DNA of 28,075 nucleotides from IMG/VR virus record IMGVR_UViG_2744054962_000004. One strand, given 5' to 3'. The notes beneath the pieces are model-generated. The model saw only the letters and a list, made by a program, of their open reading frames with translations. It made no database searches and had not been told where the DNA came from. Both the position numbers and the translations under genes were made by a program. Below are positions 1,369 through 28,075 of this stretch, piece after piece. How positions within the stretch are numbered: position 1 is the stretch's first letter; each line of letters opens with the position of its first letter. This DNA comes from a virus (Duplodnaviria; Heunggongvirae; Uroviricota; Caudoviricetes).

Positions 1369-1444
1369 GCCGATATAGCTCAGTTGGTAGAGCAGCGCAT
1401 TCGTAATGCGAAGGTCGTAGGTTCGACTCCTATTATCGGCACTC
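1369..1444 (+). tRNA. thrW: tRNA-Thr (anticodon CGU)
   Basis: 76-nt cloverleaf: GCCGATA acceptor stem, GCTCAGTTGGTAGAGC D-arm, anticodon loop TTCGTAA (anticodon CGT), GGTTCGACTCC T-arm, TATCGGC 3' acceptor strand. The last 3 nt read CTC instead of an encoded CCA (see findings). Confidence 0.92.
1409..1442 (+). repeat. left att core: 34-bp direct repeat within the 3' half of tRNA-Thr
   Basis: cgaaggtcgtaggttcgactcctattatcggcac is identical to 14987..15020; the copies diverge immediately outside. Confidence 0.85.
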
Positions 1445-2036
1445 ACACAACAAAATCCTTTAAAAACAATATCTTAATGCGATTATCGCTCTCAAGATAC
1501 AATCTTTTTTTAAGGGATTCTATGACCAACAGTTGCCGCTATGGTTAACAGTGGCTACTCAGGGATGTTAGCACGTAGCGGCCTGTAGTTGTAAAGCTCG
1601 AACAGGTACAAAGCGTGAACAGTCCCCACGAACCGCTATCAACTCGAAGCTGATGACGCTGCCAACGTCTCTAAATCCTCCCGAAACAGATTGATCATAC
1701 GCATTTAAGCCCGATGTGCGGCCTTGTGGCTGCGTAAACAGGTGAATAGTGGTAAACGTACCTGCACACGATATGCAGGCTCTGCCAGCGCTTCGCTCAC
1801 GCTCCTGACGGTACACGAGCACCCTGATAAGGTGTGATCCATCTGACAATCTGATGATGTCGCTACGCTCCGCTTGTTGCTTGTACCACTAACGGGGCTT
1901 TATGGCTTCTATTGACTTAAATTAGATAGTTGCAAGGAAATAAACTAAAGATAATTTAAGTGTTGAGCGGTTTACTCGTATTGCTTGAGGGCAGTATCAT
2001 TACAACATTAATGGGATTTTTAAGGGACTGATGTGA

Positions 2037-2672
2037 ATGGCTGAGTATTATCCAGCGGTGTTTGAAGCAGAGGCTTTTAACTGTCCTCACTGTGGTGTTT
2101 ATGCCCGACAATTCTGGCGTAGGATGTATGGCTCTTCAAATGCGCTCCCTTCAAGAGGATCTGAGTTCCGAATGTCATCGTGCGCTCATTGTGATGAAGA
2201 CGCTTTTTGGTATCAGGGCAACATGTTGATCCCTGCGACTGGCAATGTTGAACTCCCAAATCCAGATATGCCCGATGACTGTAAGTCCGACTACATGGAA
2301 GCCAGAAGCATCATTAATCTGTCTCCTAAAGGGGCCGCTGCACTACTTCGTCTATGCCTTCAGAAGTTAATGGTCCACTTAGGCGAACCGGGGAATAACA
2401 TTAACGCTGACATCCGGTCACTCGTTCAGAAAGGACTACCTGTACGTATCCAGCAGGCAGCAGACATCTGCCGTATTGTCGGCAATCAGGCGGTCCATCC
2501 CGGAGAAATTAGCCTTGATGATGACCCGCAGTTGGCACATGGTCTCTTTAAGCTGCTGAACATTATTGTCACTGAGCAGATTACCAGACCCAAAGAGGTT
2601 GAAGAGATGTTCAATAGTATGCCTGAAAGGGCGTTGAAGGGTATTGAAAACAGAGATAAACCTAAAACTTAA
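2037..2672 (+). CDS. zinc-ribbon / DUF4145-like protein (candidate defence-associated cargo)
   Basis: 211-aa ORF with ATG start. N-terminal CPHCG...CAHC pair (CxxC-x-CxxC zinc ribbon). C-terminal region ...[37 protein letters not shown]... resembles the R-x-GN-x-aaH signature I associate with DUF4145. First gene inside the island. Confidence 0.55.
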
Positions 2673-2676
2673 AATG

Positions 2677-2692
2677 AGGGGCTTAAGCCCCT
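2677..2692. terminator. perfect 16-bp palindrome between convergent genes (bidirectional terminator candidate)
   Basis: AGGGGCTTAAGCCCCT lies in the 25-bp gap between the stop at 2670-2672 (plus-strand gene) and the stop at 2698-2700 (minus-strand gene); flanked by A/T-rich sequence. Confidence 0.5.
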
Positions 2693-2697
2693 TTAGC

Positions 2698-3486
2698 TTA
2701 TTCAGAAAACCAAATTTCTGGCCTTCTAAACTCCTTATTCTCAATAAAAAACAGAATATCTTTCCAGACTTCTTCATTTTCTTCCCAGAATTTTTGTTTT
2801 TCATTCATTGTAAGGACTTTACTATCATCTATTAACTTCTTGAGAATAGCAGGGATATCTTTATAGGGTTTTTTCCAGAAGGCATTACGAAATTCTTCAA
2901 TTTCAGCACTTGCATCCCGAACGGGTGTTAGAAGTTCAAGCTGTTTTTCTGTATCGGTAATAGGTTTATTTCCAACCCACTGATGATAGATTTGGCTAGC
3001 TTCTTCATGATGACCCCGAAGAATTGTTATTATTGTCTTTGAGAGTAACGAGCACATGTCAAAAGTAGTAAAGTAAAACCAATCGTGTTTGATTGCGGTT
3101 AATTCATCTTTCTTAACCCCTATTTGTTCAAGTTCACTCGAAATTGAAGATACTAATTTATAAAGATCTTTGTTTGATGTTGCTGTATCTAGGCGTCCGG
3201 TTCTGGAGGCTAATGAAATAGCTACTTCAGAAATAGGTAAGGAAACTTTTCTTAAACTCTCTAAAACTTTTTCAGCATCGTTAATAGTATCTCTTAATTT
3301 TGCCTCCATGCCTAAGAGCTTTATTTCATGCCATTCAAATTGAGTAAGCACCATCAACCCGAAGCCTGTTACAATGACAACAGTCCCTTCAGTTGCTCCT
3401 ATTGTCAGAGTTACAATTACACCAGCGCCTATAAGTAGCAATGCAATGAAAAACAAAAAATTCTTTATCCATTTATTTTTTAGCAT
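2698..3486 (-). CDS. membrane protein with two N-terminal TM helices and a ~200-aa soluble domain, function unknown
   Basis: 262-aa ORF with ATG start. Residues ~10-30 (FLFFIALLLIGAGVIVTLTI) and ~36-50 (VVIVTGFGLMVLTQF) are strongly hydrophobic. Markedly AT-rich compared with the proA-like core, suggesting foreign origin. Confidence 0.6.
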   Translation of the reverse strand: MLKNKWIKNFLFFIALLLIGAGVIVTLTIGATEGTVVIVTGFGLMVLTQFEWHEIKLLGMEAKLRDTINDAEKVLESLRKVSLPISEVAISLASRTGRLDTATSNKDLYKLVSSISSELEQIGVKKDELTAIKHDWFYFTTFDMCSLLSKTIITILRGHHEEASQIYHQWVGNKPITDTEKQLELLTPVRDASAEIEEFRNAFWKKPYKDIPAILKKLIDDSKVLTMNEKQKFWEENEEVWKDILFFIENKEFRRPEIWFSE

Positions 3487-3539
3487 ATCACTGTCACCAT
3501 TACGATTAAATTTGATCCAATATGAAGTAAAGTAAGTAA

Positions 3540-3749
3540 CTATTTTTCGTTCTCTGATGCCTCAAACGTCTTGGAGTGAGGGCAGGACTGTGAGCGCGTC
3601 ACCAGCGTGAACAGATAAATGTTGCTTTCGTAAGTGCAAAGCCGTTTTCCGCCCTGTAACTCTTGTTCGTCGGGGTTGCTCATGGTGATTTTTCCTGCAT
3701 GAGCCGCCAGCGGCAGCAGTGCCACAACAAATAGTAAAATTTTCTTCAT
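3540..3749 (-). CDS. small secreted protein (signal peptide MKKILLFVVALLPLAAHA), function unknown
   Basis: The track ORF 3540..3755 begins at GTG; the in-frame ATG at 3749 gives MKKILLF... with a classic signal peptide and an AHA-G cleavage context. Mature part ~50 aa with two Cys. Confidence 0.45.
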   Translation of the reverse strand: MKKILLFVVALLPLAAHAGKITMSNPDEQELQGGKRLCTYESNIYLFTLVTRSQSCPHSKTFEASENEK

Positions 3750-4729
3750 TTCCACAACCTGCCCTGTAGGTGTCCCGGCTCTTTATCCTCCAAGTTTACA
3801 TTCTCCTGTTGAAAATATCCCCGGCTCTGTTGGTGATCTGCTAGACCGTCAGCCCAGACCCTCGGTGAAAAGCGCTTTTCTTCGCCAAATATCGCTACGT
3901 GATGCCTTCAGCGACACGCCTCACTGCAACAAGCAGTGCAGTTACACAATGCTGCTTTGGGCTGAGGCAAGGGAGATAACTTGATGTTTTGAAGTGCCTC
4001 TGTTCACTAATTGTACAGTCATTTAACATATTGTATCTTGCATGTACTTGACTGGAATGGTCAGGTATTGCTTTTCGGAGCGTTGATGCGAAGCGGGGTA
4101 CACAACAGCGATTTCACCAACAGAAGGAAAGCATTCAGGAGGATTCGAGGTGAGTTCTCTTGTTCAAGGATTTTGGATGAGTTTGCCTGGTCATCAGACA
4201 ATTTCAGGTTTCAGGCCTTTGAAGCTGCCAGCGTGTCAAACCTGCTGAAAGTACAATTTCCTATTTGCCAGCAGAAAAAGAGCTACTACGGCGACGTTAC
4301 CACAACGGGTTGAAGGTCTGCCATCACCTGGTGATATTCACCGAGCCAGGCCGCCACTGTTTCGTACCATTTCCCACAACAATGTAAACAGCCACATCAA
4401 TAGCCCAGCATACGCTCTCAGCGCTGCTCTACGGCGTTATCTCCACACAATCGTGAACTGACAACGCCATGATCCACGACTTCCCATAGCGCGATAGAGG
4501 AGCCTCCAGAGGGGGGTGGTTTTGGTTTTTTGTATGATGTTTTATTTTTTATGGAAAAATGGTTCAGATAGGTGGTTGTGTTTAGCCTCATATCCACCAA
4601 CATATTTAACGCACCCAGCACTGGCGCGGCTTCGTTGTGTAGATCACGACATAACAATCACTACATCCCACAGGCGAGCCAGTGACAACAGACAGGATTT
4701 TCTATCAATTAACAGGTATTAAAGCTCTA

Positions 4730-5101
4730 TTATTTCCCGCCGAAAATCCAACCGATGATGGCACCGATTACCGCAGAGCGGGTCTCACCTGCTGCTCCTT
4801 TGAGAATGTTAATAACTGCATCGCCTGCACCAGGTGCCTGCTGTTGAAGTAAATTCAAACCACGAGGTGTTAACTTGGCGGCGGTGTCCATGTCGGTTGA
4901 AGAGATTATCTCCGTGTAACCCATATCGCTGAGAGCCTGGAGTGTGTTGCACAGCAGGTCAATCTGAGTTCTGTCTCCTCTGGGCTTCCAGCCGAAGTCT
5001 GAAAAATCGAAAGATGAGTAAGCCGGATAGTCCGCAAACAGTTTCACCAGGATTCCAGTTGCCATCTCGTTAAAGCTGTCTTTGCCTTGGACGAATTCCA
5101 T
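4730..5101 (-). CDS. hypothetical protein with a C-terminal glycine-zipper hydrophobic tail
   Basis: 123-aa ORF with ATG start and a good SD (aaggaaa). C-terminus ...GETRSAVIGAIIGWIFGGK is a GxxxG-type amphipathic/TM-like tail. Transcribed divergently from the control region at 5102..5851. Confidence 0.5.
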   Translation of the reverse strand: MEFVQGKDSFNEMATGILVKLFADYPAYSSFDFSDFGWKPRGDRTQIDLLCNTLQALSDMGYTEIISSTDMDTAAKLTPRGLNLLQQQAPGAGDAVINILKGAAGETRSAVIGAIIGWIFGGK

Positions 5102-5129
5102 AATGTTTCCTTTTGTTCACTGATTGAAC

Positions 5130-5300
5130 GAGGTTACTCAGTTACGGCAGGAAGTACCAGTCAGAAGTCATCGGTAACGAATACATATGAAAAGAAGTTT
5201 TCATCGGTAATGGTTACAGATGGGTCATCAGTAACGGTTACGCACCAATAAGATCAATATATTAAGATCAAATAAAAACCATTAAGATCTTTAAAACCTT
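5130..5300. repeat. iteron/operator-like direct repeats in the divergent control region of island 1
   Basis: TCATC(G/A)GTAA(C/T)GG occurs at ~5168, ~5201 and ~5225, with a related GGTTAC motif nearby. A(A/T)TAAGATC occurs at ~5247, ~5261 and ~5281. Confidence 0.5.
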
Positions 5301-5684
5301 AAGGTCAAAGGCAGGGTGAACTGGTGTTCACTAGTTGGTGTTAAGGAGTGATGCTTCTGTATCGCTCTGCTCTGAATGGCTCTGCCACTTCAGATATGTG
5401 TGGAAGACAAGCCGCGAGGCGCGTCAGTCAAATGTGGATCGAGCACGGCGCAGAGGAGCTTTAAACGCGACGTAACTCCCCCCTTGGAGGGGCGGCGGTC
5501 CCCCCTCAATCTCGCAAGGCGATAACGGCCCTCTGATTCTGTGGCGATGCCATGAGGCACAGCGGTCCTGTAACGCTCCCTGTCGCGTTCAGAGCGTCTT
5601 TCTCCTGTTGCTGGTATTTGTACCGCTTCGCTTAGGGCGTTGAATCTTAAGCGTCTGAGAGCGTTTTGTGATAAAGGGATTGAC

Positions 5685-5800
5685 AAAGAAAAGGTATATG
5701 TATAAAGTTGCGGGGTATTGACATAAAACACTTCCATTTCTTTATTCTTTAAGTGAGAAATCGGTTGACAAAGAAACTAATTTATAATAAACTATATATT
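5685..5800 (+). promoter_or_regulatory. promoter region for the 5852.. operon with duplicated TTGACAAAGAAA boxes
   Basis: TTGACA at 5690-5695 and 5765-5770, both followed by AAGAAA, plus a third TTGACA at ~5720; A/T-rich -10 candidates follow each. Exact -10 and start site not resolved. Confidence 0.4.
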
Positions 5801-5851
5801 ATCAACTGAGATGATTTTATGAATAAACAATAACTTAAATAGGAGAGATGC

Positions 5852-6280
5852 ATGGGGAAACCTGTTCTGTTCGATTTCTCGAACGCCACTGCCTCAGAGA
5901 TTGTCGCTGCAATCGATGCAAAAATTACCACAGCTCAAAATCTGCACGCCTTCCGCACTCGTATGGGCGGTGCCAAGAAGGCCGATAAGCTCTATCCAGC
6001 TACTCGCGAAGCACTGAACATCATTAAACGCCTGCGTCAGCAAGCGAAAGACGCAAAAATCATCCGGGATATTCTTAAACCATACTCAGCAGAGTTGGCA
6101 AAAGGCCGTGATGTTATGGAAATCATTGAACCAGTACTCTCTGCCTGGCGTGTCTATTACGCTTCTCATGGCATCGGCTTGATGAATGAACAGATCCTTC
6201 TGCTTAAGATGATTGAGTCTGGCGGTGAACTCGAAGGCATTACCGGAAAACCCATTCCAGAACTGACCACAACCGAATAA
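5852..6280 (+). CDS. hypothetical protein, first gene of the island 1 rightward operon
   Basis: 142-aa ORF with ATG start and SD AGGAGA 5 nt upstream; no recognisable motif. Confidence 0.55.
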   Translation: MGKPVLFDFSNATASEIVAAIDAKITTAQNLHAFRTRMGGAKKADKLYPATREALNIIKRLRQQAKDAKIIRDILKPYSAELAKGRDVMEIIEPVLSAWRVYYASHGIGLMNEQILLLKMIESGGELEGITGKPIPELTTTE

Positions 6281-6409
6281 CCATTCTCTGCTTTACACCG
6301 TTGGCAGCAACGCCACCAAACGAAATCGCCGCAAACACGGCTTCTTACTCCTGATCGCCATCCGCGATAGCAGGAGCGATAACTATTATGCATTCGGGGG
6401 GAACTTGAT

Positions 6410-6601
6410 ATGAATTTGAAGATTCAACAGCACGTATACGCCGGACTTTTAGAAGAAGCGAAGCGCCGGGGAACAACTGTTCCAAACCTTGCACGCGAAG
6501 TGCTAGAAATCGCCGCCCATCTTTTTGATAACGGTGAACCTTTACCCGCCTTGGGGAATATTAATGGAGATAATAATGAACAAAAGAGCGTCGCAAAATA
6601 A
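6410..6601 (+). CDS. small hypothetical protein (63 aa), possibly DNA-binding
   Basis: ATG start, weak SD. Its 3' end overlaps the start of the next gene. Function not recognisable. Confidence 0.4.
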   Translation: MNLKIQQHVYAGLLEEAKRRGTTVPNLAREVLEIAAHLFDNGEPLPALGNINGDNNEQKSVAK

Positions 6602-7376
6602 ACCAGAACTATGGATTGAAGAAGATCGCCGCCTTTTCTATGCAGATGCAATCACAATTAAGTCCACTGGTGAATGTTTCAAAGTCGAGGATAAACTTGC
6701 AAAGATCCATACCTATATGGTGGATCAATACAACAGCTACCAGGCTGATGGTAAGAGTTTCTACGAAGATCAGCGCGATATCGCGACTAAATGTAAATGC
6801 ACACCAAAAACTCTTGGCAAGTGGCTGAAAGTTCTTCAAGCACTTGGTCTACTTATCATTGATGAGAGCCAGAAGAGCCACTCTTACACGGTGCGGTCAG
6901 TAGTCAGCCAGGAACACAACTTGATTTTCAGCTATCCGAAATTGTTGAACGGCAAGCCGTCATACGACCATGAAGAGACGCTTAAACGCCTTTATGCATC
7001 TCAGGGACGTAGGAACGTAAAAAATCATCAGCCAAAAACCGAAGAGAGCGGTAAGAGTGAGCAGAAACGTGATGTGGAATCTTTCATGGTGGGATCTGCC
7101 GCGCCTGCTGCTGGAAAACCAGACGGCATACCTGCTGTGGATATTCCTGTCGATGTTGATTTATCCGGTAGTGATGATCCATCACTGAGTGATTCAAATG
7201 GGAGAAATGTCGTTGAGTTCCCGCGAAATTGTAGACCCAAACCCAGTTTTAAATTTGTAGCCCCAGATGATGACGACCACGAGGAAATCCATCAGGAGCA
7301 GGAAACCTTTATTGAGCCAGATGTTTGCCACGAACCAACGCCGGAAGAAATTGACGCTGCGGTAGCTCTTATGTGA
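6576..7376 (+). CDS. putative replication initiator / winged-helix DNA-binding protein with acidic C-terminal tail
   Basis: The track ORF begins at TTG 6525; the in-frame ATG at 6576 has SD GGAGA 5 nt upstream. Segment ...FYEDQRDIATKCKCTPKTLGKWLKVLQALGLLIIDESQKSHSYTV... is a helix-turn-helix plus wing pattern. C-terminus is strongly acidic (DDDDHEEIHQEQE...). Island 2 has a protein of the same architecture at 19503..20072. Confidence 0.55.
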   Translation: MNKRASQNKPELWIEEDRRLFYADAITIKSTGECFKVEDKLAKIHTYMVDQYNSYQADGKSFYEDQRDIATKCKCTPKTLGKWLKVLQALGLLIIDESQKSHSYTVRSVVSQEHNLIFSYPKLLNGKPSYDHEETLKRLYASQGRRNVKNHQPKTEESGKSEQKRDVESFMVGSAAPAAGKPDGIPAVDIPVDVDLSGSDDPSLSDSNGRNVVEFPRNCRPKPSFKFVAPDDDDHEEIHQEQETFIEPDVCHEPTPEEIDAAVALM

Positions 7377-7388
7377 TGGAGGAATGAA

Positions 7389-7865
7389 TTGTGTGAACAC
7401 GTAAGCGGTGTACTGACCGCAGATGAAGAACAAAAGCTATCTCGCCTTTTCTCCGTCTTGGAGAATCCGACATATAAATCCCGGTCCAAACCATCCGACT
7501 TGGAAACACAACGTAAAGCCCGTTTGCTATTGAATCGTGGGTTTTCACTGCAAATTGTCGCAAATACACTAGATCTTCCGTTTGCTGAAGTCTGGCGGCT
7601 CGCACGTCAAAAACAAGCGGTGACCTGGGCGATGATGACACCGACAGCCCGGACAGAATTTGTCCGTGAAATGTGGTCACATCGGATGCACCCGGAACAG
7701 ATCCGCAAGCGTTGCGATGGTCTGTCATACGTAAGCCTTCGATATTACCTGCATAACGCCGGGATCACTGACGCTGAAATGTTGGGTTACTACCCAGACG
7801 TGTTCGCGAATATCTGCAAGTTGCCGACAGTGAAGAAGAAGCGCACTAAGCGTAAATCCAAATAA
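7389..7865 (+). CDS. hypothetical protein with basic C-terminal tail (possible DNA-binding / small-terminase-like)
   Basis: 158-aa ORF starting at TTG 7389 with strong SD GGAGGA 5 nt upstream (no in-frame ATG near the 5' end). C-terminus KKKRTKRKSK. Confidence 0.45.
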   Translation: MCEHVSGVLTADEEQKLSRLFSVLENPTYKSRSKPSDLETQRKARLLLNRGFSLQIVANTLDLPFAEVWRLARQKQAVTWAMMTPTARTEFVREMWSHRMHPEQIRKRCDGLSYVSLRYYLHNAGITDAEMLGYYPDVFANICKLPTVKKKRTKRKSK

Positions 7866-8030
7866 TCCCACATCGGGAGCCAATGAACTTTGAAGCAATC
7901 TTTTCTTACCTGCCCGTTGTCTGGCTGGCGTATCGCTGCGTCTATGATGGGCTGATCCTCTTGCTGCGAAGCAGTGACGTTGCCCGTCATCGCCTTGCGA
8001 CAAATATCCTACTTTGGAGACTCCATAAAA

Positions 8031-8363
8031 ATGAAAAACGTAAACGACATCCGCGCCGATATTCTCGCCGCAATGCAGGCCGCTGCCGAACCGGAGAGCG
8101 GAGATCTGAATAAAAGCGCCGAGCAGGTGTTGGCTGATGCCATCGAGGGATATCTGACCGCTTCGACTGCAACAGCCAGCAAATCAGCCCCGAAAGCAAA
8201 GACCATAAAGGAAAAAGGGATCGCTCTGTGCCACCAGGCCCAAGGTTATAGCGCTAATCTGCGTCCGGTAAGTCTCATGATGAAGGCAAGTCTTGATGAG
8301 CTAACACCTGAACAACGCGCCGCGCTTGAGCGTCTGGGTTACGATATCAATCAGGGGGTGTGA
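8031..8363 (+). CDS. hypothetical protein (110 aa)
   Basis: In-frame ATG at 8031 inside the GTG-initiated track ORF 7974..8363. Stop TGA 8361-8363 overlaps the start of the next gene (TGATG), suggesting translational coupling. Confidence 0.45.
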   Translation: MKNVNDIRADILAAMQAAAEPESGDLNKSAEQVLADAIEGYLTASTATASKSAPKAKTIKEKGIALCHQAQGYSANLRPVSLMMKASLDELTPEQRAALERLGYDINQGV

Positions 8364-18908: not shown

Positions 18909-18937
18909 TTGACAAAAGCCTTTAGTCGTGGTAAAGT
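18909..18937 (+). promoter_or_regulatory. sigma70-like promoter for the island 2 rightward operon
   Basis: TTGACA (18909-18914), 17-bp spacer, TAAAGT (18932-18937), about 120 bp upstream of the first ATG (19059). Confidence 0.4.
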
Positions 18938-19058
18938 AATATTAGGGGCAGGAAAACATTCTTATCCTTTAAATAATTAAACCAATGCATCGCACTTTGA
19001 AGCCCAAGGCTTGCAAGGTGTCTATTTCTTTTAACTAAATAGAATAGGAGGTTAATTA

Positions 19059-19259: not shown

Positions 19260-19278
19260 AGAAGAGAAGGAGAAAACT

Positions 19279-19449: not shown

Positions 19450-19502
19450 TTTTTATCACCATAGTAGCGCCGTAGAGCGTGATTACATCAAGGAGATTTT
19501 TA

Positions 19503-20072
19503 ATGATTAATGAAGAACAATTTGTAAAAGTTCCTATGTGGATTCTAAAAATAAGCCAAGTAAACGGGCATAAATTTACAGATAGTGCTAAAAACCTTTA
19601 CTGCTATCTGAGAGGGTTTGATCGTGCATTTCCCTCTTACGCTAAGATAGGCGATGTTTTTGGCATAACACCAAGAGCAGCAGAAGAAAGGGTTAAGAAA
19701 TTGCTCGAAATGGGATTAATTATAAAAGATGCACGACCAGGAAGCTCTAACCTTTATCGAGTGCTTGATATTCCAAAAGGAGAATCATCACTACCTGATC
19801 CTTCTGAGAAAGAAGACGAATCTAATGAAATATTGAATGTTTCCGAAATCATCGTTGAAGAAGAAACACAAGAGCCAGAGTTCCCTGAGCGGCCCGAAAT
19901 TTTTACTTGGCTTCTTTCCCTTGATAAGAAGAAACCACCGCACGAAGAAACAGAAGATTTTGTAAAACGAGCATTAGATTCAAAGAATATCTATCTTTGT
20001 GAAAATGATTTTGACTCTTTGATAATTGATCTCAAAAGTGAGAGCACAATATATGATTCACTACCCTTTTAA
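19503..20072 (+). CDS. putative replication initiator / winged-helix DNA-binding protein with acidic C-terminal tail
   Basis: ATG 19503 with SD AGGAGA 6 nt upstream (track ORF starts at GTG 19479). ...YAKIGDVFGITPRAAEERVKKLLEMGLIIKDARPGSSNLYRVL... HTH plus wing. Acidic tail (EKEDESNEILNVSEIIVEEETQEPEFPE). Counterpart of island 1 gene 6576..7376. Confidence 0.55.
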   Translation: MINEEQFVKVPMWILKISQVNGHKFTDSAKNLYCYLRGFDRAFPSYAKIGDVFGITPRAAEERVKKLLEMGLIIKDARPGSSNLYRVLDIPKGESSLPDPSEKEDESNEILNVSEIIVEEETQEPEFPERPEIFTWLLSLDKKKPPHEETEDFVKRALDSKNIYLCENDFDSLIIDLKSESTIYDSLPF

Positions 20073-20206
20073 GGAAATAAATGATTTATAACATCACAAA
20101 CAATCAGTAACAACAGATCGGGCAATACATATGGCAAGTGCATTTGTAGCAATATTCATCGTAACTATGGCATTCAGTTTTTATAATCCACATAAAAAGA
20201 GGGAAA

Positions 20207-20587
20207 ATGGGAAGAAAGAAAAAGAACAACTTAAAACGTATTGAGCAAGGGAACACCTTCAACGACGTAAGAAAGCAAGTTTATAAGAATAATGAAGAAG
20301 CAGGTGAAGAGATAGTCTTCATTTTAGAATCTAACAGCCCACCACTTACAAACGAAGAATTAGAAATTATTCAATCAATGGGTGATGGTGTGTATTTCAA
20401 ACCCAGAACAAGAAAGACAACGATTATAGAACCTGGCACATTGAAGAAATGGCAATTGTTAGGCTTTACCTCATTTCGTCACTATACAGGCTTCAATTCG
20501 TTCAACAATCAGGTAGGCGGCGTTACAGAAACAGATCTGATGCAGCACCTGATCGACACTCTCGCATCTAACAAACGTTCTAACTAA
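20207..20587 (+). CDS. hypothetical protein (126 aa) with basic N-terminus
   Basis: ATG start, SD-like AAGAGGGA upstream; MGRKKKNNLKR... N-terminus. Confidence 0.45.
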   Translation: MGRKKKNNLKRIEQGNTFNDVRKQVYKNNEEAGEEIVFILESNSPPLTNEELEIIQSMGDGVYFKPRTRKTTIIEPGTLKKWQLLGFTSFRHYTGFNSFNNQVGGVTETDLMQHLIDTLASNKRSN

Positions 20588-20602
20588 TAGAAAGACGGGC
20601 GT

Positions 20603-20848
20603 ATGTATAAGCGCCCAATGAAAATATTCGAAAAAGGAAAAATAATGATTGGCTATATTCAAGAAACACAATTATTTCAGATGCTCCTGTCTGATGCAAA
20701 AAACTATGCTGAGTTAATCCGGCTGGCAAAAGAAACAGAAGACTACGAAGCATTAGAACGTTACCGTGATGAAGTGCTGACGCTCAAGACACCTTTTAAC
20801 ATCGTATTGAATATGATTAATGATGCATTACAAGGAGAATACGCATAA
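20603..20848 (+). CDS. small hypothetical protein (81 aa; alternative starts at 20618 or 20645)
   Basis: ORF with three in-frame ATGs; the one at 20645 has the best SD (AAAGGAAA). Stop overlaps the next start (ATAATG at 20846-20850). Confidence 0.4.
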   Translation: MYKRPMKIFEKGKIMIGYIQETQLFQMLLSDAKNYAELIRLAKETEDYEALERYRDEVLTLKTPFNIVLNMINDALQGEYA

Positions 20849-21150
20849 TGGAAGAAGATATTAGCAATGCAATGGAACAACTTTTAGATCTGACTATCTC
20901 ACTACAAACAAGAATAAATCAAGCCTATTCAGATTTATGCGATTATACGCTCTCTCAATGCGTTATTAGCTTAATGAAGCTCAATGTATGCTTAGAAGAT
21001 TTTGTCTCTCTGGTGAGCGATTTAGAGCTATCAGATGCCAAGATGTGCACTCAAACCATCACAGACACCGCCAGCACGTTAAAGGCTGCAAGTGAAGAGA
21101 TTCAGCAATTAGTAAATGATTTAGCAAAAAGTGCTATTTTCTCTAAATGA
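20848..21150 (+). CDS. hypothetical protein (100 aa)
   Basis: ATG with SD AAGGAGAA 8 nt upstream; start overlaps the upstream stop (translational coupling); predicted helical. Confidence 0.45.
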   Translation: MEEDISNAMEQLLDLTISLQTRINQAYSDLCDYTLSQCVISLMKLNVCLEDFVSLVSDLELSDAKMCTQTITDTASTLKAASEEIQQLVNDLAKSAIFSK

Positions 21151-22057
21151 TAATGAAAATCATTTGCATTTATGATGATTTTGTTATATAATAATTTTAG
21201 GGGTAGATTAAAAGATTTTAGTTGGTGTTAATCCTTCTACTGTCATAAATCCCTGCATATGGAAGGTGATAGCCTCAAAGGTTGAGTGGCATTAACCTCT
21301 AACAAATATTACCTTCCATCTATCAAGAAGTTTTAGAATAATCATAACTCCCTCTTTGATTGTTGATTGTTTCTACGTTGTGTTGATGAATGTTGTTAGG
21401 CATTGTGCTTAATTTTTGATAAAAGCGGGTAGGTGTTATCTCCTTGCCCTTCCCGCTCTTATTTTTCATCTATGCTTATCCTAAAGCTCCTTATTTTGTC
21501 CGAAAACATTAAAGAGCCTTACACTGATAGTTATATTTTATAACTATTTACTAACATCATTAAACTCTTATTTAATGACGGAAGTTAGTAACAGAATAAT
21601 CTATTAAGTTGTTGTCAAAAAACTATCATCTGCATAGCGTTAGCCGCAAGTAGAGAGAGTTTAGCTAAGAATGGTGCAATAAACTTTGGAAATATTGATA
21701 GCAAAACGGGTTTTATAGAATGCGGATCTATAATCTTTGGTTGTGAAACGATTTTCTGAAACGGTAGATTACTGTTGGTGTAGTTAATCCTTATTAAAAA
21801 TTTAATCTGTGAGTAGATTGGAATAGTGATTCCTTAAAATCTGACTGGTGCATCCACACCATGAAAGATAGCGGTTAGCCACCGCGCCCCGAATAGATAT
21901 TCCTGATTGATTCCGCATGTTTTCTTAAGAGCATGTTTTCAGGAGTATCTATTCACCCTTTAAGCATATCATCAAGTATATTTAAAAAGTGTATTTGCTG
22001 ATATGTTTAATCCTCTTATAGTTTAACTTATCAATTATGTAATTGCCCGCACGTTAA

Positions 22058-22104
22058 AGCCCCTTTGCTGGTCAGAACCTCTTACGGCATTGGGGCTTTT
22101 TATT
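22058..22104 (+). terminator. candidate intrinsic terminator / attenuator upstream of the structural-like operon
   Basis: AGCCCC ... GGGGCT inverted repeat with a long (28-nt) loop followed by TTTTTATTT. Confidence 0.35.
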
Positions 22105-22131
22105 TGTCTGGCACTAACAGGAACGTTATTT

Positions 22132-22329
22132 ATGAAACAAGAAATGATTATCAGCAAAGACGGGGAAACGATGATTGTTAGTGATGAAAACCTCATTAAG
22201 GTTGCCGCACTGTTGGGAGTTACTCCCGAAAGTCTTCGTTCTACCACTGCTCAATTATTTAAATCGGCTGATGCGGTTAGTCTTGCTGATGCCCTTAAAT
22301 CTAAAATTAAACAACTGAAAGGAAAATAA
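22132..22329 (+). CDS. small hypothetical protein (65 aa)
   Basis: In-frame ATG at 22132 inside the TTG-initiated track ORF 22090..22329; sits immediately upstream of the small/large structural pair. Confidence 0.4.
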   Translation: MKQEMIISKDGETMIVSDENLIKVAALLGVTPESLRSTTAQLFKSADAVSLADALKSKIKQLKGK

Positions 22330-22333
22330 TCTT

Positions 22334-22717
22334 ATGGCTAACCCATATGGAAAATTAAAAGCAGTGAATGCGGATAATTCCCGTTCACGCTGTAAGGTAG
22401 TAGCTTACGCTGCTGATCCAGTGCTGCAAGATCGCCTCGTCAAACTGGCTTCACCTCTCACTGACGATCTTATTGTCGGGGCTTTGCTGAAAGCCGATGG
22501 CACCAAAGCAACAACCGCTTCTGATATTGCTCACGTAGTGGTTGAACCGGCTTATGAAGGACAGGAAAGCGTAGTGGTTGCACATCCTACTTTCGTTATT
22601 CTGGCTGAAGATGGGATTGAATTTAACAGTATGGAAAAGGCAAGTGTTATTGCAAAACTGCAATCTCTCGGCTTTGTAATTGCTGGTTATGAAGAACTTG
22701 CGATCCCTACGACTTAA
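22334..22717 (+). CDS. small phage-structural-like protein (head-decoration-like or tail-terminator-like)
   Basis: 127-aa ORF with ATG start, directly followed (14-bp gap) by the 343-aa protein; positional counterpart of island 1 gene 11079..11420. Confidence 0.45.
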   Translation: MANPYGKLKAVNADNSRSRCKVVAYAADPVLQDRLVKLASPLTDDLIVGALLKADGTKATTASDIAHVVVEPAYEGQESVVVAHPTFVILAEDGIEFNSMEKASVIAKLQSLGFVIAGYEELAIPTT

Positions 22718-22731
22718 CAAGGAAAATAATA

Positions 22732-23763
22732 ATGAATGATTTATCAACATATTTTGGCGTTAATACTGCGGTAGTAACTCCATTTGCTTATGAGAATGCA
22801 CTTAATACCCTGATTACTAATCTCGATCTGTTCGATGTGCAATATCATACAGAAAACAGCATTCTTCTTACCGACCTGATTGATCAGTTTGTGCAGGTAG
22901 CTGGGGAAACCTCGCCTTACGCTCAAAGCGACTGGAACGCCTCTAAACGTCAGGAATGGTCAAACAAACTTTTCCAGATGAAACACGTCGGCAGTATTAA
23001 CGCTGTTACTTCTCGTGACCTGGAACAATACAGCCGCCAATATCCAAACCGTTCTGATGCTATGCTGGTAGCGGTTAATGATTTCTCTGAGGCACATTAC
23101 CGTTCACACGCAAACCGTGTTGAAGTGGATCTGATTACCGCGCTGCTGGGCCTGAAAGTTGAATCTGAATATGCCGGACAAGGTGATCTCGACTTCCTCG
23201 ACGGTCAGGCTAAAACCACGGTACCCGCTATCGACTTTGCATCGACTACTGTTAACCCGTTCCTTGCTATTCGTAAAGCGGTGCGCTTACAGAGTGAAAA
23301 GCTGGGGTCTGGTCTTGCTGCAAAGCGAACTGGTGTAATTATCTTTGCTGCTGGCGCTGCTGCTGATGGTTTGTCATCTAACCCGCTGATCAGTGACATG
23401 GTGAAATATGCAGGTGATGCGAGTGCTACGGCCCTGTTTACCCGTATGGTTGATTCTAACCCAGCCTATGACTCTTTCCAGATTGGTGGGATCACTGTTA
23501 TTGATGTGTCAATGTTTCCTGAGATTGTTGCTCACATCGGAGAGAACGGTTTCGCAATTGTTCCAGTAATGGATAAAGCGGCACAGTGCTATCAGCTTCA
23601 TAGCGGCGTTGGTGTGCGTCATGCTGAGTTAGGTCAAGATGCCGTGTTACATCACCAATATCTAATCAAGGATGAATTCCAATTCCCATCTGTGGTTACT
23701 GAGACATCTTATCTGCCAGTAAACAACATTCCGCAAGCTATCATCTTCGGATCTGCTGCGTAA
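22732..23763 (+). CDS. phage-structural-like protein, 343 aa (major-capsid-E-like or major-tail-like)
   Basis: ATG start. N-terminal similarity to island 1 protein 11439..12473; same size. Fold not verified. Confidence 0.5.
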   Translation: MNDLSTYFGVNTAVVTPFAYENALNTLITNLDLFDVQYHTENSILLTDLIDQFVQVAGETSPYAQSDWNASKRQEWSNKLFQMKHVGSINAVTSRDLEQYSRQYPNRSDAMLVAVNDFSEAHYRSHANRVEVDLITALLGLKVESEYAGQGDLDFLDGQAKTTVPAIDFASTTVNPFLAIRKAVRLQSEKLGSGLAAKRTGVIIFAAGAAADGLSSNPLISDMVKYAGDASATALFTRMVDSNPAYDSFQIGGITVIDVSMFPEIVAHIGENGFAIVPVMDKAAQCYQLHSGVGVRHAELGQDAVLHHQYLIKDEFQFPSVVTETSYLPVNNIPQAIIFGSAA

Positions 23764-23918
23764 TAAAGCGTTAATAGACGATTCCCCATCGTCTGGAAAT
23801 AATCGGGGCAATAAGGGTAAGGGATAATCATATAAGCAAAATATGCGCTGTCTCTTGCCCTTATTTTTTTTCTACTGTCTACAAACCCAAATAAAAATAT
23901 ATATGTGAGAGAAAACCA

Positions 23919-24116
23919 ATGAACGCAGAAAATTCACAGGCATTAATTCTTAAATCTGTAAAAGAACTGGCAGCTATTAGCGAGGAATCAGTTATAAACA
24001 CATCGGCGCTTTGCCGCCTTTTAGAAATTGATGCAAATAATGTGCGTCAGCGTGTCTTTCAGACTGGATGCAGCACTTTCGAAGCAATTCAATACTATTG
24101 CTCTAAAAAACAATAA
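23919..24116 (+). CDS. small hypothetical protein (65 aa)
   Basis: ATG start; lies between the 343-aa protein and the large coiled-coil protein, where a siphovirus tail module would have a tape-measure chaperone (positional analogy only). Confidence 0.4.
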   Translation: MNAENSQALILKSVKELAAISEESVINTSALCRLLEIDANNVRQRVFQTGCSTFEAIQYYCSKKQ

Positions 24117-24150
24117 TAAACAACAATCATAATACAGGGAAACAATTAGC

Positions 24151-25992
24151 ATGTTAGAACTTAACGTCAGCCGCTTATCAAACGTTGTCACCTTCCAGGT
24201 TGATCGACCATCATTAGAGAAAGCAAAAGCAGAAGTAGAAAAACTTCGTAAACAAATGGCGGCGGTGAAAGATATAGAATTGCGTGTTAAGACACATAAA
24301 CAATCAACCGCTAAAGCAAAAAAAGACGTAGACGATATTGCTAAAAAGCAAGCACAGGCAGATAAAGCCAATGCTAAAGCACAATTAGCCGCTCAACGTG
24401 TAGTTGCAAGAGAACAAAAAGCCCTGGCAGCACGCAAAGAGAAGGCAGAATTAAAGCTTTTAGACGTTGGATCAAGCATTAGTGCAATGCACCGTCTTTC
24501 TGTAGCGGAACAATATAAAGCTATTGCACAGGCTAGAGAAATTGCCCTCCAATATGAAAGAGGCGCTATTAGTCTGGCACGTATGAATAGCCAAATGAAA
24601 CGCCTACAACAGCAACAACGTAAGATTAATGGCAATCGTAACGCTCACGCTAAAGCCTATGCACCTGTTAAGGGTAGCGGGAGTATTGGCGGCGGTGCTG
24701 CGGCTGTTATGCTGGGTGGCTTAGGCGCTGGCGCTACGTATATGGCTATGAGCAAAGCCTCTGAATTTGTTACTAACAGCTTTGCGAATGCTGAAACGCT
24801 GGGTGAATTGTATAGCCGTGCGAAGCTGGGCGGTGTAGACGTTAACCAGATGAACGATGTTGAACAATGGGCGTATAAAAACGGCGTTGATTCAATGATG
24901 GGCGAACAAGGTAAACGTAAGTATCTGGATCAGATGAAAGATGTGCGTGAACGTGCAACCAAATCTTATGATGAAGCTGAATATGTAGTTGATAAGAAAA
25001 CTGGTAAAGGAGAATGGAAGGGCGGCGATAGCGGCATCAATACTTTAATGAATGAAGGATTCCTAACTAAAAAGGATCTAAAAGACTTTGCTGATAATCC
25101 GGCTGGTCTGGTTAGTAAAGCAGTTCAGGGAATGGTAGCTAAAGGCTATTCAGATGCACAAATCGGTAGTCGTCTGGAAGATCTGGCTGATGATTTGATG
25201 CTCACCTCTAAATACTGGACACGCTCCGCTAAAGAAGTGGAACAATCAGCACGAGAACAACGAGAATCAGGGCGCTGGGTAACACAGGCACAACAGGAAA
25301 GCGTTATTAAATTCCGTGAACTGAATAATGCACTTAGTGGGCTTTCTGACTCACAAGGGATCGCCTTTGTTGATGGCTTTATGAAATCTCTCGATCCTGC
25401 TGTGATTGAAGAGTTCAAAAAGAGTATGGTTGCAATGCTGCCAATGTTTACCAAATTAGGCGAGGCTATCGGCGGATTGGTTAACGCCGTAATGAAAGCA
25501 ATCAACTGGCTGATGAAAAACGACGAGAAGACGGAAGCTATTCAGAAGAATTTAGGTGATGCACCGCCACTGTCTAACGAAGGGATGAAACAGAATCTTT
25601 CTAATCTCGTTCCTGATCAATATAAAGGCGCTGGCACCGGAACAACTAAGCCAGATAACAGCAATTCCCTGTTTAACACTATTAAAGGCTGGTTTACGCC
25701 AGAAGAAACGGTAGGCGGGGCGCAGGCTGTAAATCAATACACTCTCGAAGGACAAAACATTGCAAATCTGAAACAGAGTGCAGCACAACAAGCTATCAAG
25801 ACTCCTTCTTACACCTTTGCACCTGTTATTAACTTCAATCCAGAATTACAAGTAAATGCAGAAGTGCCGCTAACTATCGAATCAGACACCGGACGATTGA
25901 GCGAATTTATCGACTTCAAATCAAAGGCATCCTCCGCTGAGTTTAGCAAGCTATTAACGCTGGGTGTTATGTCAGGCGGGTCAACCTATTAA
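24151..25992 (+). CDS. large coiled-coil protein with Gly-rich hydrophobic segment (tape-measure-like or scaffold-like)
   Basis: 613-aa ORF with ATG start. K/A/Q-rich coiled-coil N-terminal third, then GSGSIGGGAAAVMLGGLGAGATYMAM hydrophobic Gly-zipper. N-terminus parallels island 1 protein 8363..10510 (LELNVSRLSNVVTFQVD vs IIVSTLTNRVVWDVD). Confidence 0.6.
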   Translation: MLELNVSRLSNVVTFQVDRPSLEKAKAEVEKLRKQMAAVKDIELRVKTHKQSTAKAKKDVDDIAKKQAQADKANAKAQLAAQRVVAREQKALAARKEKAELKLLDVGSSISAMHRLSVAEQYKAIAQAREIALQYERGAISLARMNSQMKRLQQQQRKINGNRNAHAKAYAPVKGSGSIGGGAAAVMLGGLGAGATYMAMSKASEFVTNSFANAETLGELYSRAKLGGVDVNQMNDVEQWAYKNGVDSMMGEQGKRKYLDQMKDVRERATKSYDEAEYVVDKKTGKGEWKGGDSGINTLMNEGFLTKKDLKDFADNPAGLVSKAVQGMVAKGYSDAQIGSRLEDLADDLMLTSKYWTRSAKEVEQSAREQRESGRWVTQAQQESVIKFRELNNALSGLSDSQGIAFVDGFMKSLDPAVIEEFKKSMVAMLPMFTKLGEAIGGLVNAVMKAINWLMKNDEKTEAIQKNLGDAPPLSNEGMKQNLSNLVPDQYKGAGTGTTKPDNSNSLFNTIKGWFTPEETVGGAQAVNQYTLEGQNIANLKQSAAQQAIKTPSYTFAPVINFNPELQVNAEVPLTIESDTGRLSEFIDFKSKASSAEFSKLLTLGVMSGGSTY

Positions 25993-26039
25993 TCATCACT
26001 GTGGGGCTGTTTAGCCCCCTTAAATAAGGATTACAAATT

Positions 26040-26717
26040 ATGGCAATGGGTCCGTTAACCATTGGTCGCCCGACTGAGGCGAAAATCAACAGCACAAGCA
26101 ACGATAGCAACGGTAGAACAACTAAAGGGGGTAACGGCTTTGCGATTATTACCTCTAACCTCGGCAGTGGTGCAAATGCTGCTTACAATGACTACCGGGC
26201 ATTATCATTTGATAACGTGGAATCGACGAAAGTTAGCCGAAATGCAGACGTTACAAGCTATGCCGTCGAATCAGGATCAGAAGTTAGTGATCATGTTCAA
26301 ATACGGAATAACAAGTTCACATTACAGGGGCGTATCTCTGAAACCGTATTGAAACTCAATCCCGATATGATTAAGAATGCGGGAATTAACGGCAATCGAC
26401 GTATGCTTATGCTTGAATACCTAAATCAGTTGATGGACAGTCGCCAACCTTTCCTACTTGTCACTGAGTTAAAAAATTATGACAACGTTGTGTTAGTTGG
26501 CATGTCTTACGAAGAAGAAGCAAGCGAAAGCTTATTGTTTACTCTTGATTTTGAGCAAATTCGTCTTGTCTCTAAGGCCACCACTAATGCTATTGCTGTA
26601 AAAACAGCACCAAATAAATCTGTAGGGGGACAGGTTAAAATGCAGGTAAATACAACAGAACAGAAAAATCAAAAAAGCCCAGGGCAAGACGTTGTAACGC
26701 CAGTATTTAAACAATAG
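26040..26717 (+). CDS. hypothetical protein (225 aa), probably structural
   Basis: ATG start preceded by a GGGGCTgtttAGCCCC hairpin (25998-26017); Ser/Thr/Asn-rich, predicted beta-rich; last gene before the integrase. Confidence 0.45.
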   Translation: MAMGPLTIGRPTEAKINSTSNDSNGRTTKGGNGFAIITSNLGSGANAAYNDYRALSFDNVESTKVSRNADVTSYAVESGSEVSDHVQIRNNKFTLQGRISETVLKLNPDMIKNAGINGNRRMLMLEYLNQLMDSRQPFLLVTELKNYDNVVLVGMSYEEEASESLLFTLDFEQIRLVSKATTNAIAVKTAPNKSVGGQVKMQVNTTEQKNQKSPGQDVVTPVFKQ

Positions 26718-26757
26718 CCTTAAACGCCTATGAAACGCTCTGTAACGAGATAATCAT

Positions 26758-26790
26758 AAAAGAGGCATCAATCTATATTGAAGCCTCTTT
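26758..26790. terminator. hairpin between convergent genes 26040..26717 and integrase 2
   Basis: AAAGAGGC (26758-26765) pairs with GCCTCTTT (26783-26790) around a 17-nt loop, with T/A-rich flanks on both sides; lies just before the integrase stop at 26798-26800. Confidence 0.5.
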
Positions 26791-26797
26791 ATTACGT

Positions 26798-28075
26798 CTA
26801 TGGCGTTGTTTTACGCCTTAAATTTGATTTTTTATTGATTGATAAGCCTTTCTCTATTTCAGGGTAGCGTAAAAGCTCAATATATTTTTTAAGCTCTACT
26901 GGAGAAGCTGCATTCTTGCTATATGTGCGGAATGTTTCTGTATTGCCGCGTGTATGGCCCAGGAGAAGGGCGATCCTGTCTTCTGGAATTTGATTTCGAT
27001 CAAGAAGCTGTGCTACTCCGTGTCTCAGAGAATGAAACACTTTCCTTTCTGTTCCCTTTTCCCCTAAAGCCTTTCGTTTAGCTCTTGTAAATCGTTGTGT
27101 ATGCCACGTAGAGCGTTTACCGTCAGCACGTTCTGTAATGCTGGCGTGATAGAACAAAAAGCCATTGTGAGGCTTTTCACGCAGCGACAACACCAACGGA
27201 GTGATAAGGTTATGCACAGGCACAAGACGTGCCGCAGCTTTCGTTTTTCCCTGTGTGATTTCAAAACACAGCACACCTTCGATCTCTTTCACATCGTCTA
27301 TTGTGATACTTGCTATCTCATTGATCCGCATACCTGTATATAAACCGATAAGACACAAAGCCGTCATTTCTTTGTTTTCTGCTGAATCACCGGAAAATAC
27401 TTGCAACACCTGCAATAGCTCTTTGTTAGAAAATGCCTCGTAGCTCTCTCTACTTTGTGCCACATCAAGCCTATGCCCTCGCCAGGGGGAGAGCGCCCTT
27501 TCTGGCGCATCGTGGTAACGTGATGAAGCTAACTCCCATAGCTGGGCCATTGGGCTGATATAATTTGCAATTGATTGTTGTGAAAGGGTTTTTTGCATGT
27601 GTTCAATCCAGCCTGTAACAGTGGTGCGGCTTACATCTTGCAATGCAATATCAGGCTTTTTACGGTAGGAGAGAAACATCTCTACCGCTTTTCTTGCCTT
27701 AGCTAAAGTGGCTGGCTTCTTCTTCGTGCTGTTAATTGTCAGGTAGATTTCAAGAATTTTAAGCAATGACGGACACGAAGACGCTGTATCTTGCATTCTG
27801 GTAGCTGTTTTGGCGTATTTAGCCTTACTGCGTAACAGTTCCAGCGTGTTTTCTATTGTGCTGTTTACAGGGGCAACACTCTCCCGTAAGCAATGGTATT
27901 CATCTGCAATCTGATCACGCTTTCGACGTGCCACACGAAGATTACTTGTGTGTAGACTTCTGACAAACGTCCTTTTTCCTTCAAAAAAGGGCTGCATATA
28001 CACAGGCAGCGTGATCCTTAAATAGTAGTTACCGTAAGAATCACAGATTAAGTATTGGTTAGGCTTGTATCTCAT
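26798..28075 (-). CDS. tyrosine recombinase / phage integrase (island 2)
   Basis: 425-aa ORF whose ATG is the last 3 nt of the window. ...GMRINEI..., ...KVFHSLRHGVAQLL..., ...GHTRGNTETFRTY... consistent with the R...HxxR(H)...Y signature. Paralogue of integrase 1 with a 49-aa identical block. Confidence 0.9.
   Translation of the reverse strand: MRYKPNQYLICDSYGNYYLRITLPVYMQPFFEGKRTFVRSLHTSNLRVARRKRDQIADEYHCLRESVAPVNSTIENTLELLRSKAKYAKTATRMQDTASSCPSLLKILEIYLTINSTKKKPATLAKARKAVEMFLSYRKKPDIALQDVSRTTVTGWIEHMQKTLSQQSIANYISPMAQLWELASSRYHDAPERALSPWRGHRLDVAQSRESYEAFSNKELLQVLQVFSGDSAENKEMTALCLIGLYTGMRINEIASITIDDVKEIEGVLCFEITQGKTKAAARLVPVHNLITPLVLSLREKPHNGFLFYHASITERADGKRSTWHTQRFTRAKRKALGEKGTERKVFHSLRHGVAQLLDRNQIPEDRIALLLGHTRGNTETFRTYSKNAASPVELKKYIELLRYPEIEKGLSINKKSNLRRKTTP

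Follow-up and report, generated by a model that had tools for sequence, protein, structure and literature searches.

The stretch of DNA analysed here (the window; 28,075 nucleotides, IMG/VR record IMGVR_UViG_2744054962_000004) matches the chromosome of Escherichia coli UID2309220009 at 100% identity and contains two integrative islands lying in tandem behind thrW, the gene for tRNA-Thr(CGT). Each island is a member of a family of mobile elements of about 13 kb in Enterobacteriaceae, which insert into the 3' end of tRNA genes with an integrase of their own, and each carries, as predicted from its genes, a winged-helix replication initiator, anti-phage or accessory cargo at the left end and a partial set of virion genes. 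The islands are probably helper-dependent satellites of phi92/rV5-like phages, which would contribute a small decorated capsid of their own and give rise to a chimeric tail.

The left flank of the array is formed by the chromosomal gene proA (1..1254, plus strand; RefSeq annotation of the source chromosome). It is followed by thrW (1369..1442, plus strand), recognised by ARAGORN and Rfam, the final 34 nt of which represent the attachment (att) core and the left junction of island 1. A repeat search of the window detected these 34 nt as an exact direct repeat at 1409-1442 and 14987-15020, and comparison of the junctions in four genomes showed that the displaced thrW 3' fragment (14987..15020, plus strand) is the right junction of island 1 and at the same time the left junction of island 2. 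A third att copy, ACTCCTATTATCGGCAC, shortened to 17 nt, was found 143-159 nt past the window end, where the sequence was read from the source chromosome; island 2 therefore extends from 15021 to about 28234, and the window does not include all of it. Island 1 (1443..15020) is a discrete integrative element of 13,578 bp, and island 2 (15021..28075 in the window) has 13,214 bp in all, its end lying 159 nt beyond the window. Both tyrosine integrases are encoded on the minus strand at the tRNA-distal island ends and face inward; with such an integrase and bounding repeats derived from a tRNA, both islands have the make-up of tRNA-integrating tyrosine-integrase islands. Each integration leaves behind a direct repeat derived from the tRNA, which lets further insertions line up head to tail. 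Downstream of the last att copy the source chromosome holds an integrase pseudogene remnant and then yagU.

A survey of 5,426 complete E. coli genomes recovered island 1 in 22 of them, mostly without island 2 and with the same junctions, island 2 in 123, mostly alone and directly adjoining thrW, and both islands in tandem in three, and in about 2,600 genomes neither is present and thrW is directly joined to the downstream flank. Island 1 alone is exemplified by MRY15-117 and island 2 alone by strain 98218, and PEC403 displays a triple array at thrW with a CP4-like island upstream of island 1. In these three genomes and the tandem strain the junctions are strictly modular and identical, so presence and absence are polymorphic with precise junctions. 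Island 2 of the tandem strain is identical to that of strain 98218 at 13,214 of 13,214 positions, with flanks differing by 0.6% (left) and 1.1% (right), and the proA side and right flank of the tandem strain are 100% identical to those of strains with island 1 only; in an island-1 background the whole of island 2 has therefore recently been acquired, or lost, in one precise step. Gain and loss thus affect each island as a whole and with exact boundaries. A sequence-only reading of the window had placed two separate islands in tandem behind thrW, as the repeats and the single, tandem, triple and empty sites now show, and had put the displaced tRNA fragment at 14987..15022, where it does lie, with the exact repeat ending at 15020. 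The third repeat which it expected behind island 2 is present just past the window, the locus comparison which it proposed revealed all configurations, and neither of the two outcomes it had named as contradicting the idea, no att copy after the second integrase or 26 kb always moving as one unit, was encountered.

Several further observations were made at this locus. The right flank past the last att copy (L001 30634-31227, catttaaatcaataagtta...) is similar in sequence to the island 2 left end (catcaagaaaatcaataactta...), so that what looks 'chromosomal' there may be the remains of an older, related island. Where island 1 is inserted, the encoded thrW 3' end ...GGCACCA is changed to ...GGCAC directly followed by TCA (1438-1446 compared with L025 3040-3050), so that CCA is lost and maturation presumably depends on the CCA-adding enzyme; the encoded CCA is kept when island 2 sits alone. 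The end sequences of island 2 (28013-28234 region) match in 496 genomes compared with 123 containing the whole island, and other elements therefore share its termini. The CP4-like island of PEC403 (L023 1-17835) bears Ag43, CbtA/YeeU and its own integrase of 439 residues, holds an inserted resistance region with estX, aadA1 and insertion sequence elements, and keeps a longer tRNA fragment (>40 nt) at its right end.

The virion genes of island 2 form a block on the plus strand. Its first member encodes a protein of 127 residues (22334..22717) with a gpD/SHP-like fold according to AlphaFold and Foldseek; the model was built from a 25-sequence alignment and reached a predicted local distance difference test score (pLDDT) of 75.7, and its top Foldseek matches in PDB were chains from capsid entries of phiTE (E 4e-6), Bas63 and Sf14, followed by P21 SHP and lambda gpD. 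The phiTE, Bas63 and Sf14 chains are read as decoration proteins from their size and fold, and the island 2 protein is accordingly modelled and read as a capsid decoration (cement) protein; its identity was settled by the fold search, alignment of the family to the decoration protein of the phi92-like phage PHB05 having given no answer (hhalign, E 0.013, 3% probability). It is followed by the major capsid protein (MCP; 22732..23763), the homologues of which carry PF03864, the tape measure protein (TMP) of 613 residues (24151..25992; phrog_16051, E 3e-33) and a Dit-like tail tube initiator (26040..26717; Pfam Dit_like, E 2e-27). In island 1, also on the plus strand, a protein of 110 residues (8031..8363; phrog_2970, E 2.8e-17) just precedes a tape-measure-like protein of 715 residues (8363..10510; PHROG TMP families). 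Further downstream, a protein of 113 residues (11079..11420), which is probably a decoration protein judging from its slot before the MCP gene and a marginal hhalign match to the 127-residue family, is followed by an MCP of the lambda-E type with HK97 fold (11439..12473; Pfam Phage_cap_E, E 8e-15, full length), whose best solved match is the MCP chain of 9cul, the mature capsid of phiTE.

For the tube initiator of island 2 the best solved homologue is phi92 gp135 (E 1.4e-53) and for its TMP phi92 gp134 (E 1.2e-21), and the profile of the MCP family placed phi92 gp124 second (E 1e-7) after 9zbi_A (E 1.8e-8). Compared with PHB05, the tube initiator is 49% identical to gp127, which likewise follows the TMP gene, and the TMP is 26% identical over 559 residues; local gene order is common to both in decoration protein-MCP and in small gene-TMP-tube initiator, and the connector, sheath, tube and chaperone genes that intervene in PHB05 are missing from island 2. 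The TMP of island 1 shows 32% identity to that of the Klebsiella phage FBKp34 (Stephanstirmvirinae) and 31% to that of Seunavirus (Vequintavirinae). In a tblastn search of 50,697 phage genomes TMP matches were found almost only in myoviruses of Enterobacteriaceae with 135-150 kb belonging to the phi92/rV5-like group. By sequence comparison, the structural proteins are thus most similar to those of phi92/rV5-like virulent myoviruses (Stephanstirmvirinae and Vequintavirinae). Phages of these subfamilies are virulent, have genomes of 140-150 kb and do not enter lysogeny.

Scans of all annotated products against Pfam and PHROG yielded no portal, terminase, protease, connector, tube, sheath, baseplate, fibre or lysis genes, in agreement with the sequence-only reading, which had seen no terminase, portal or lysis genes. 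A tblastn search with 74 open reading frames (ORFs) of a phi92-like phage disclosed no relics of phage genes in the islands, and the small proteins upstream of the TMP genes showed no similarity to helper tail-assembly chaperones. Each island is hence a small element without a complete set of virion, packaging and lysis genes, as is typical of satellites.

Comparison of the two islands with each other revealed integrases with 46% identity and MCPs with 24% identity over their full length (E 8e-16). Similarity was marginal between the proteins just upstream of the capsid genes (hhalign E 2.5e-4, 43% probability) and between the tape-measure-like proteins (27% over about 170 residues, E 0.03); the replication proteins are both of the winged-helix type and have no significant similarity to each other, and no counterpart or relic of the island 2 Dit-like protein was found in island 1. 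Judged by these proteins, the islands are related at the family level, with deep divergence, and are not copies of one another. The earlier statement that their proteins are homologous, yet far from identical, thus holds for integrase and MCP, and for decoration protein and TMP by fold or position, but the replication proteins have no detectable homology to each other. The architecture ascribed to both differs in module order, the TMP gene standing before the head genes in island 1 and after them in island 2; likewise, of the repeat-rich control regions proposed for both, only that of island 2 is borne out by iterons, with merely weak two-copy repeats in island 1.

Homologues of MCP and decoration protein were found only in Enterobacteriaceae; named sources are E. 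coli, Klebsiella, Enterobacter, Citrobacter, Cronobacter, Raoultella, Kosakonia, Pluralibacter and Scandinavium, where the proteins are annotated as 'hypothetical' or 'major capsid protein'. A scan of species-representative genomes gave six family loci. Relatives occupy tRNA-Gly CCC (Klebsiella, E. coli) or thrW (Raoultella, Citrobacter) and share a common order of cargo, gene-free stretch, initiator, decoration protein, MCP, small gene, TMP, sometimes tube initiator, and integrase; the architecture is also found in Enterobacter. The five members delimited by att copies measure 12.7-14.3 kb despite variable cargo, and at least six genera have intact orthologous ORFs. When island 2 was compared with its E. 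coli relative at tRNA-Gly, the ratio of nonsynonymous to synonymous substitution rates (dN/dS) was lowest for the tube initiator (0.09), followed by the TMP (0.14), the decoration protein (0.18) and the MCP (0.20); by these ratios, the structural genes are under purifying selection and are working genes rather than relics. A side observation concerns Citrobacter sp. NCU1, in which contig_39 (L019 5884-7703, also L022) presents an integrase, a tRNA-Gly core and a new left end carrying the candidate RNA element of island 1 and further island genes, and in which a second, different MCP of the family is located on another contig; the locus may be another tandem array or an attP junction, and stacking may be common in the family.

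Extrachromosomal relatives were detected as well. Two Logan contigs of 13,649 and 13,537 bp from different runs (L031, ERR10766091; L034, ERR11438243) have exact 30-nt terminal overlaps, the signature left by circular assembly at k=31, and are circular permutations of each other with 94-95% identity. They carry the block of decoration protein, MCP, TMP and tube initiator without an integrase, have an SF2-helicase-like protein of 492 residues (phrog_2467) instead of the winged-helix initiator, and possess an Imm_superinfect gene. These integrase-less circular relatives suggest a plasmid-like or virion-derived lifestyle in the same family; a literature search for the run accessions found nothing. 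A third contig (13,098 bp) displays an integrase and then right end, tRNA-Gly core and left end, an attP-type junction, and a fourth has a 23-nt tRNA-like core at both ends. As read from these contigs, family members exist as circles.

The proposed course of events is as follows. Upon infection by a phi92/rV5-like phage the islands would leave the chromosome, replicate and produce shell proteins of their own; MCP and cement protein would build a small capsid sized for about 13 kb, and the island tape measure protein (and tube initiator) would replace that of the helper, resulting in a chimeric tail. With 613 residues in the TMP of island 2 compared with 659 in that of phi92, this tail would be expected to be shorter by about 7%. 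The helper would supply portal, scaffold/protease, terminase, tube, sheath, baseplate, fibres and lysis, so that the strategy of cf-PICIs for heads would be combined with that of PLEs for tails. The constrained size of 13 kb fits a dedicated small capsid. Small capsids are known from the satellites P4 and SaPIs, and by analogy the island capsid may be of about T=4. More tentatively, we propose that the elements constitute a new satellite family exploiting phi92/rV5-like phages with a decorated shell and tail core of their own, which persists either integrated at tRNA genes or as an integrase-less circular episome.

Several points weigh against the satellite proposal. Helper dependence is inferred from sequence. 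The likeness of the MCPs to those of phi92-like phages is weak (about 21% identity, profile E 1e-7), and with 9zbi_A being of unknown origin the capsid genes could therefore come from another lineage. Neither a pac or cos site nor a small terminase was found, upstream regions inspected by eye had no promoter motif in common with PHB05, and the T4-type late promoter motif TATAAATA was not enriched. An exact search of IMG/VR yielded no attP junction of islands 1 and 2, and that of island 2 was likewise not found in JGI metagenome contigs or, searched as a 124-nt synthetic attP, in complete E. coli genomes. Moreover, the relatives in IMG/VR are prophage regions predicted in the genomes of isolates rather than data from virions, and the circular contigs, from samples of unknown origin, could reflect plasmid-like maintenance rather than packaging.

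Some of these points would suit integrative defence islands that are not packaged at all, spread by other routes, for example generalised transduction or recombination, and use their structural homologues as dominant-negative decoys against phi92/rV5-like phages. Island 1 does carry PD-T7-4 and a circular relative an Imm-type superinfection immunity gene, interference of a satellite with tail assembly is documented for Rta of PLE11, and no packaging signal or small terminase was found; yet a decoy requires neither the selected pair of decoration protein and MCP nor the size of 12.7-14.3 kb, which both fit a dedicated small capsid, and an element that excises and replicates is indicated by the integrase, the replication module and the circular forms. 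As identical copies of island 2 in diverged backgrounds require efficient horizontal transfer in addition, decoys are considered unlikely. The weak likeness of the MCP to phi92-like phages, the best solved match of the family profile being 9zbi_A of unknown origin, and the widespread pairing of lambda-E and gpD would rather point to a different helper, for instance a temperate myovirus or a siphovirus, with the resemblance to phi92 arising from the sampling of sequenced and solved phages. This has a small chance of being correct, given that three independent proteins of island 2 closely match the same phage group, that the island 1 TMP matches sister subfamilies and that TMP matches are almost confined to this group of myoviruses.

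The sequence-only reading had left a choice between a satellite and a reduced phage relic, and the evidence favours the satellite because of purifying selection, tight size, circular relatives and identical island 2 copies in diverged backgrounds. Decaying prophage remnants kept passively at a tRNA hotspot would explain the absence of most phage genes and the integrase pseudogene remnant just downstream of the array, but are strongly disfavoured and scarcely credible in view of dN/dS values of 0.09-0.20, ORFs intact across at least six genera, the lack of pseudogene relics, conserved size and precise gain or loss, as well as related phages that are virulent and do not lysogenise. It is also very improbable that the islands are self-sufficient, be it as a plasmid-like replicon with an HK97-fold compartment or as a tiny autonomous virus: integrase-less circular relatives exist and several conserved small proteins have no assigned function, structure prediction having failed for one of 126 residues, but no ORF is large or similar enough for a portal or large terminase, and a tape measure and a tube initiator would be of no use to an element in which genes for tube, sheath and baseplate are absent.

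Among known systems with experimental support, PLEs with their helper ICP1 come nearest to the islands by analogy. PLEs use a large serine recombinase and remodel the ICP1 coat protein into small capsids with a scaffold of their own. The islands differ in using tyrosine integrases at tRNA genes, with no serine recombinase, and in encoding their own MCP and decoration protein in Enterobacteriaceae hosts, PLEs being without a capsid protein of their own. Common to both are a small integrated element, a virulent myovirus helper (presumed here), an own TMP and baseplate-core protein, and anti-phage functions. The PLE paper reports that PLEs encode TMP, tail assembly chaperone and baseplate hub 19-41% identical to those of ICP1, which they replace, leading to chimeric, slightly shorter tails, that PLE virions contain ICP1 capsid proteins, and that tmp genes are predicted in some satellites outside Vibrionaceae (PMC11838301). 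An own TMP (26-32% identity) and tube initiator (49%) in the islands represent a functional resemblance, not family membership. EPIPs of Mycolicibacterium are satellites of about 11 kb reported to have capsid and TMP genes and altered tail length (bioRxiv 10.64898/2025.12.02.691453). Compared by description only, they resemble the islands in that capsid protein and TMP are both encoded by the satellite, and differ in actinobacterial host, serine integrase, own small terminase, head-tail adaptor/stopper and temperate helper; TMP genes are otherwise unknown in satellites except PLEs and EPIPs, as stated in that preprint of December 2025 (bioRxiv 10.64898/2025.12.02.691453).

Like the islands, cf-PICIs, known from Enterobacteriaceae and other hosts, are integrated satellites of about 13-15 kb with their own HK97-fold MCP that take other parts from helpers. 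However, they encode portal, protease, head-tail connectors and small terminase and steal only tails, whereas the islands lack all of these and possess TMP and tube initiator. P4-like elements are similar in tRNA integration, a size of about 11-13 kb, tyrosine integrase, hotspots of defence cargo and small capsids (T=4 in P4), but P4 has no capsid or tail genes and uses Sid, Psu, Delta, alpha primase and the cos site of its helper; no families of Sid, Psu, Delta or alpha primase-helicase were found in the islands with Pfam and PHROG. The int-stl/str-alpA-pri/rep module of classical PICIs, with terS or a packaging-redirection gene, was not recovered either, with no AlpA, primase or terS matches and an integrase that is tRNA-distal and transcribed inward. 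With CP4-6-type islands the elements share the hotspot at the thrW 3' end and the integrase at the tRNA-distal end, but these are larger, carry Ag43 and toxin-antitoxin cargo of the CbtA/YeeU type, and have no capsid or tape-measure module. Full-text searches of the literature found no description of the island family, which would add a new family to the known kind 'phage satellite', provided that experiments prove its dependence on a helper.

If the proposal is true, no satellite in E. coli would have been known before these islands to exploit a virulent phage, and they would be the first satellites to join capsid formation with assembly of a chimeric tail. The rebuilding of tails known from PLEs would be extended to a satellite that encodes head shell and tail core and steals portal and terminase, raising the question of how a foreign capsid protein assembles on the helper portal. 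Phi92/rV5-like myoviruses are used in phage therapy cocktails; island-bearing E. coli, Klebsiella, Enterobacter and Citrobacter might then resist or blunt therapeutic and biocontrol phages of Phapecoctavirus, Justusliebigvirus and Vequintavirus, and the islands might use such phages to carry defence genes such as PD-T7-4 between strains. A possibly new structured RNA would precede their exchangeable defence cargo. In the tandem, two family members co-reside at one tRNA site and offer a natural system for satellite competition or cooperation.

The cargo of island 1 begins with an anti-phage defence gene of the type PD-T7-4 (DUF4145; 2037..2672, plus strand), identified by PADLOC model PDLC04109 and Pfam DUF4145, the PADLOC match covering residues 1-209 of 211 (E 6.4e-102) and thus practically the full length. 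Upstream of it lies a structured noncoding element (1699..1909, plus strand), a candidate noncoding RNA or leader of about 210 nt, which is 96% identical to its copy in a Klebsiella island otherwise unrelated in DNA. Its structure is indicated by 95.8% of cells being paired and by eight compensatory pairs compared with 0-4 in slid controls, G-U pairs favour the plus strand, and folding of single sequences was uninformative (z-scores of -0.3 and -1.6); no match was found in Rfam. Copies are present in L002 (2077-2287), L005 (1370-1581), L019 (7475-7707), L026 (8946-9178), L027 (7000-7207), L029 (4014-4224) and L030 (3946-4178), and the element occurs in 849 of the 5,426 E. coli genomes, plasmids included, and not in phage genomes. 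In every context examined it stands just upstream of variable, mostly defence-like cargo (PD-T7-4/DUF4145, AbiJ-NTD4, DUF3800), most copies lie near the tRNA-proximal island end, and a small serine or tyrosine recombinase gene is often a few kb off. With default filters a covariance model detected no copy in island 2; with filters off, a degenerate relative with many broken pairs and large insertions was scored at 15230-15526 (9.3 bits). Based on these alignments the element may be a new structured RNA or the leader of exchangeable defence cassettes.

Further cargo ORFs of island 1 (RefSeq coding sequences within 2698..5101, minus strand) are located at 2698-3486, 3540-3749 and 4730-5101, the last of which is matched by phrog_2266, the other two being without family match. 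The winged-helix replication initiator (DUF6945/HTH_36; 6576..7376, plus strand) was recognised by Pfam DUF6945 (E 2.6e-13), and its PHROG matches are replication initiation proteins and a DnaD-like helicase loader. Near the right end a GNAT acetyltransferase cargo gene (13107..13685, plus strand; weak Pfam GNAT match, RefSeq name) overlaps with its 3' end the 3' end of the integrase gene by 20 nt; the tyrosine integrase (13666..14871, minus strand) has an N-terminus of the DUF6538 type and matches Pfam Phage_integrase (E 7.5e-19). An ORF of 52 residues precedes the GNAT gene (12918-13685), and the two could form a GNAT-type toxin-antitoxin pair, for which PADLOC and NCBIfam gave no match. Gene-free stretches at 3750-4729, 5102-5851 and 10511-11078 are unusually long for a 13-kb element.

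In island 2 a cargo protein of 183 residues (16401..16952, plus strand; phrog_2578 and phrog_14768) is followed by an AT-rich gene-free stretch of 2.1 kb (16953-19058) enclosing five 23-nt iterons, CACCCnnACAGAAnnnTGTTAnCC (18080..18218; repeat search and TRF), an array that is the probable replication origin. The winged-helix replication initiator (19503..20072, plus strand) matches a PHROG replication initiation protein (E 1.2e-8) and weakly Pfam HTH_36 and HTH_24. Next come three genes conserved in the family (20207..21150, plus strand), encoding 126, 67 and 100 residues and with homologues in L002, L005, L017, L019, L020 and L022; the AlphaFold model of the 126-residue protein was unusable (pLDDT 47.6). 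The tyrosine integrase of 425 residues (26798..28075, minus strand) was identified by NCBIfam tyrosine recombinase matches. The gene-free stretch at 16953-19058 and a second one at 21151-22131 are likewise unusually long for an element of 13 kb; the relatives in Klebsiella (L002) and E. coli (L005) have a gap of about 2.2 kb in the corresponding place, with patches 85-91% identical to L005.

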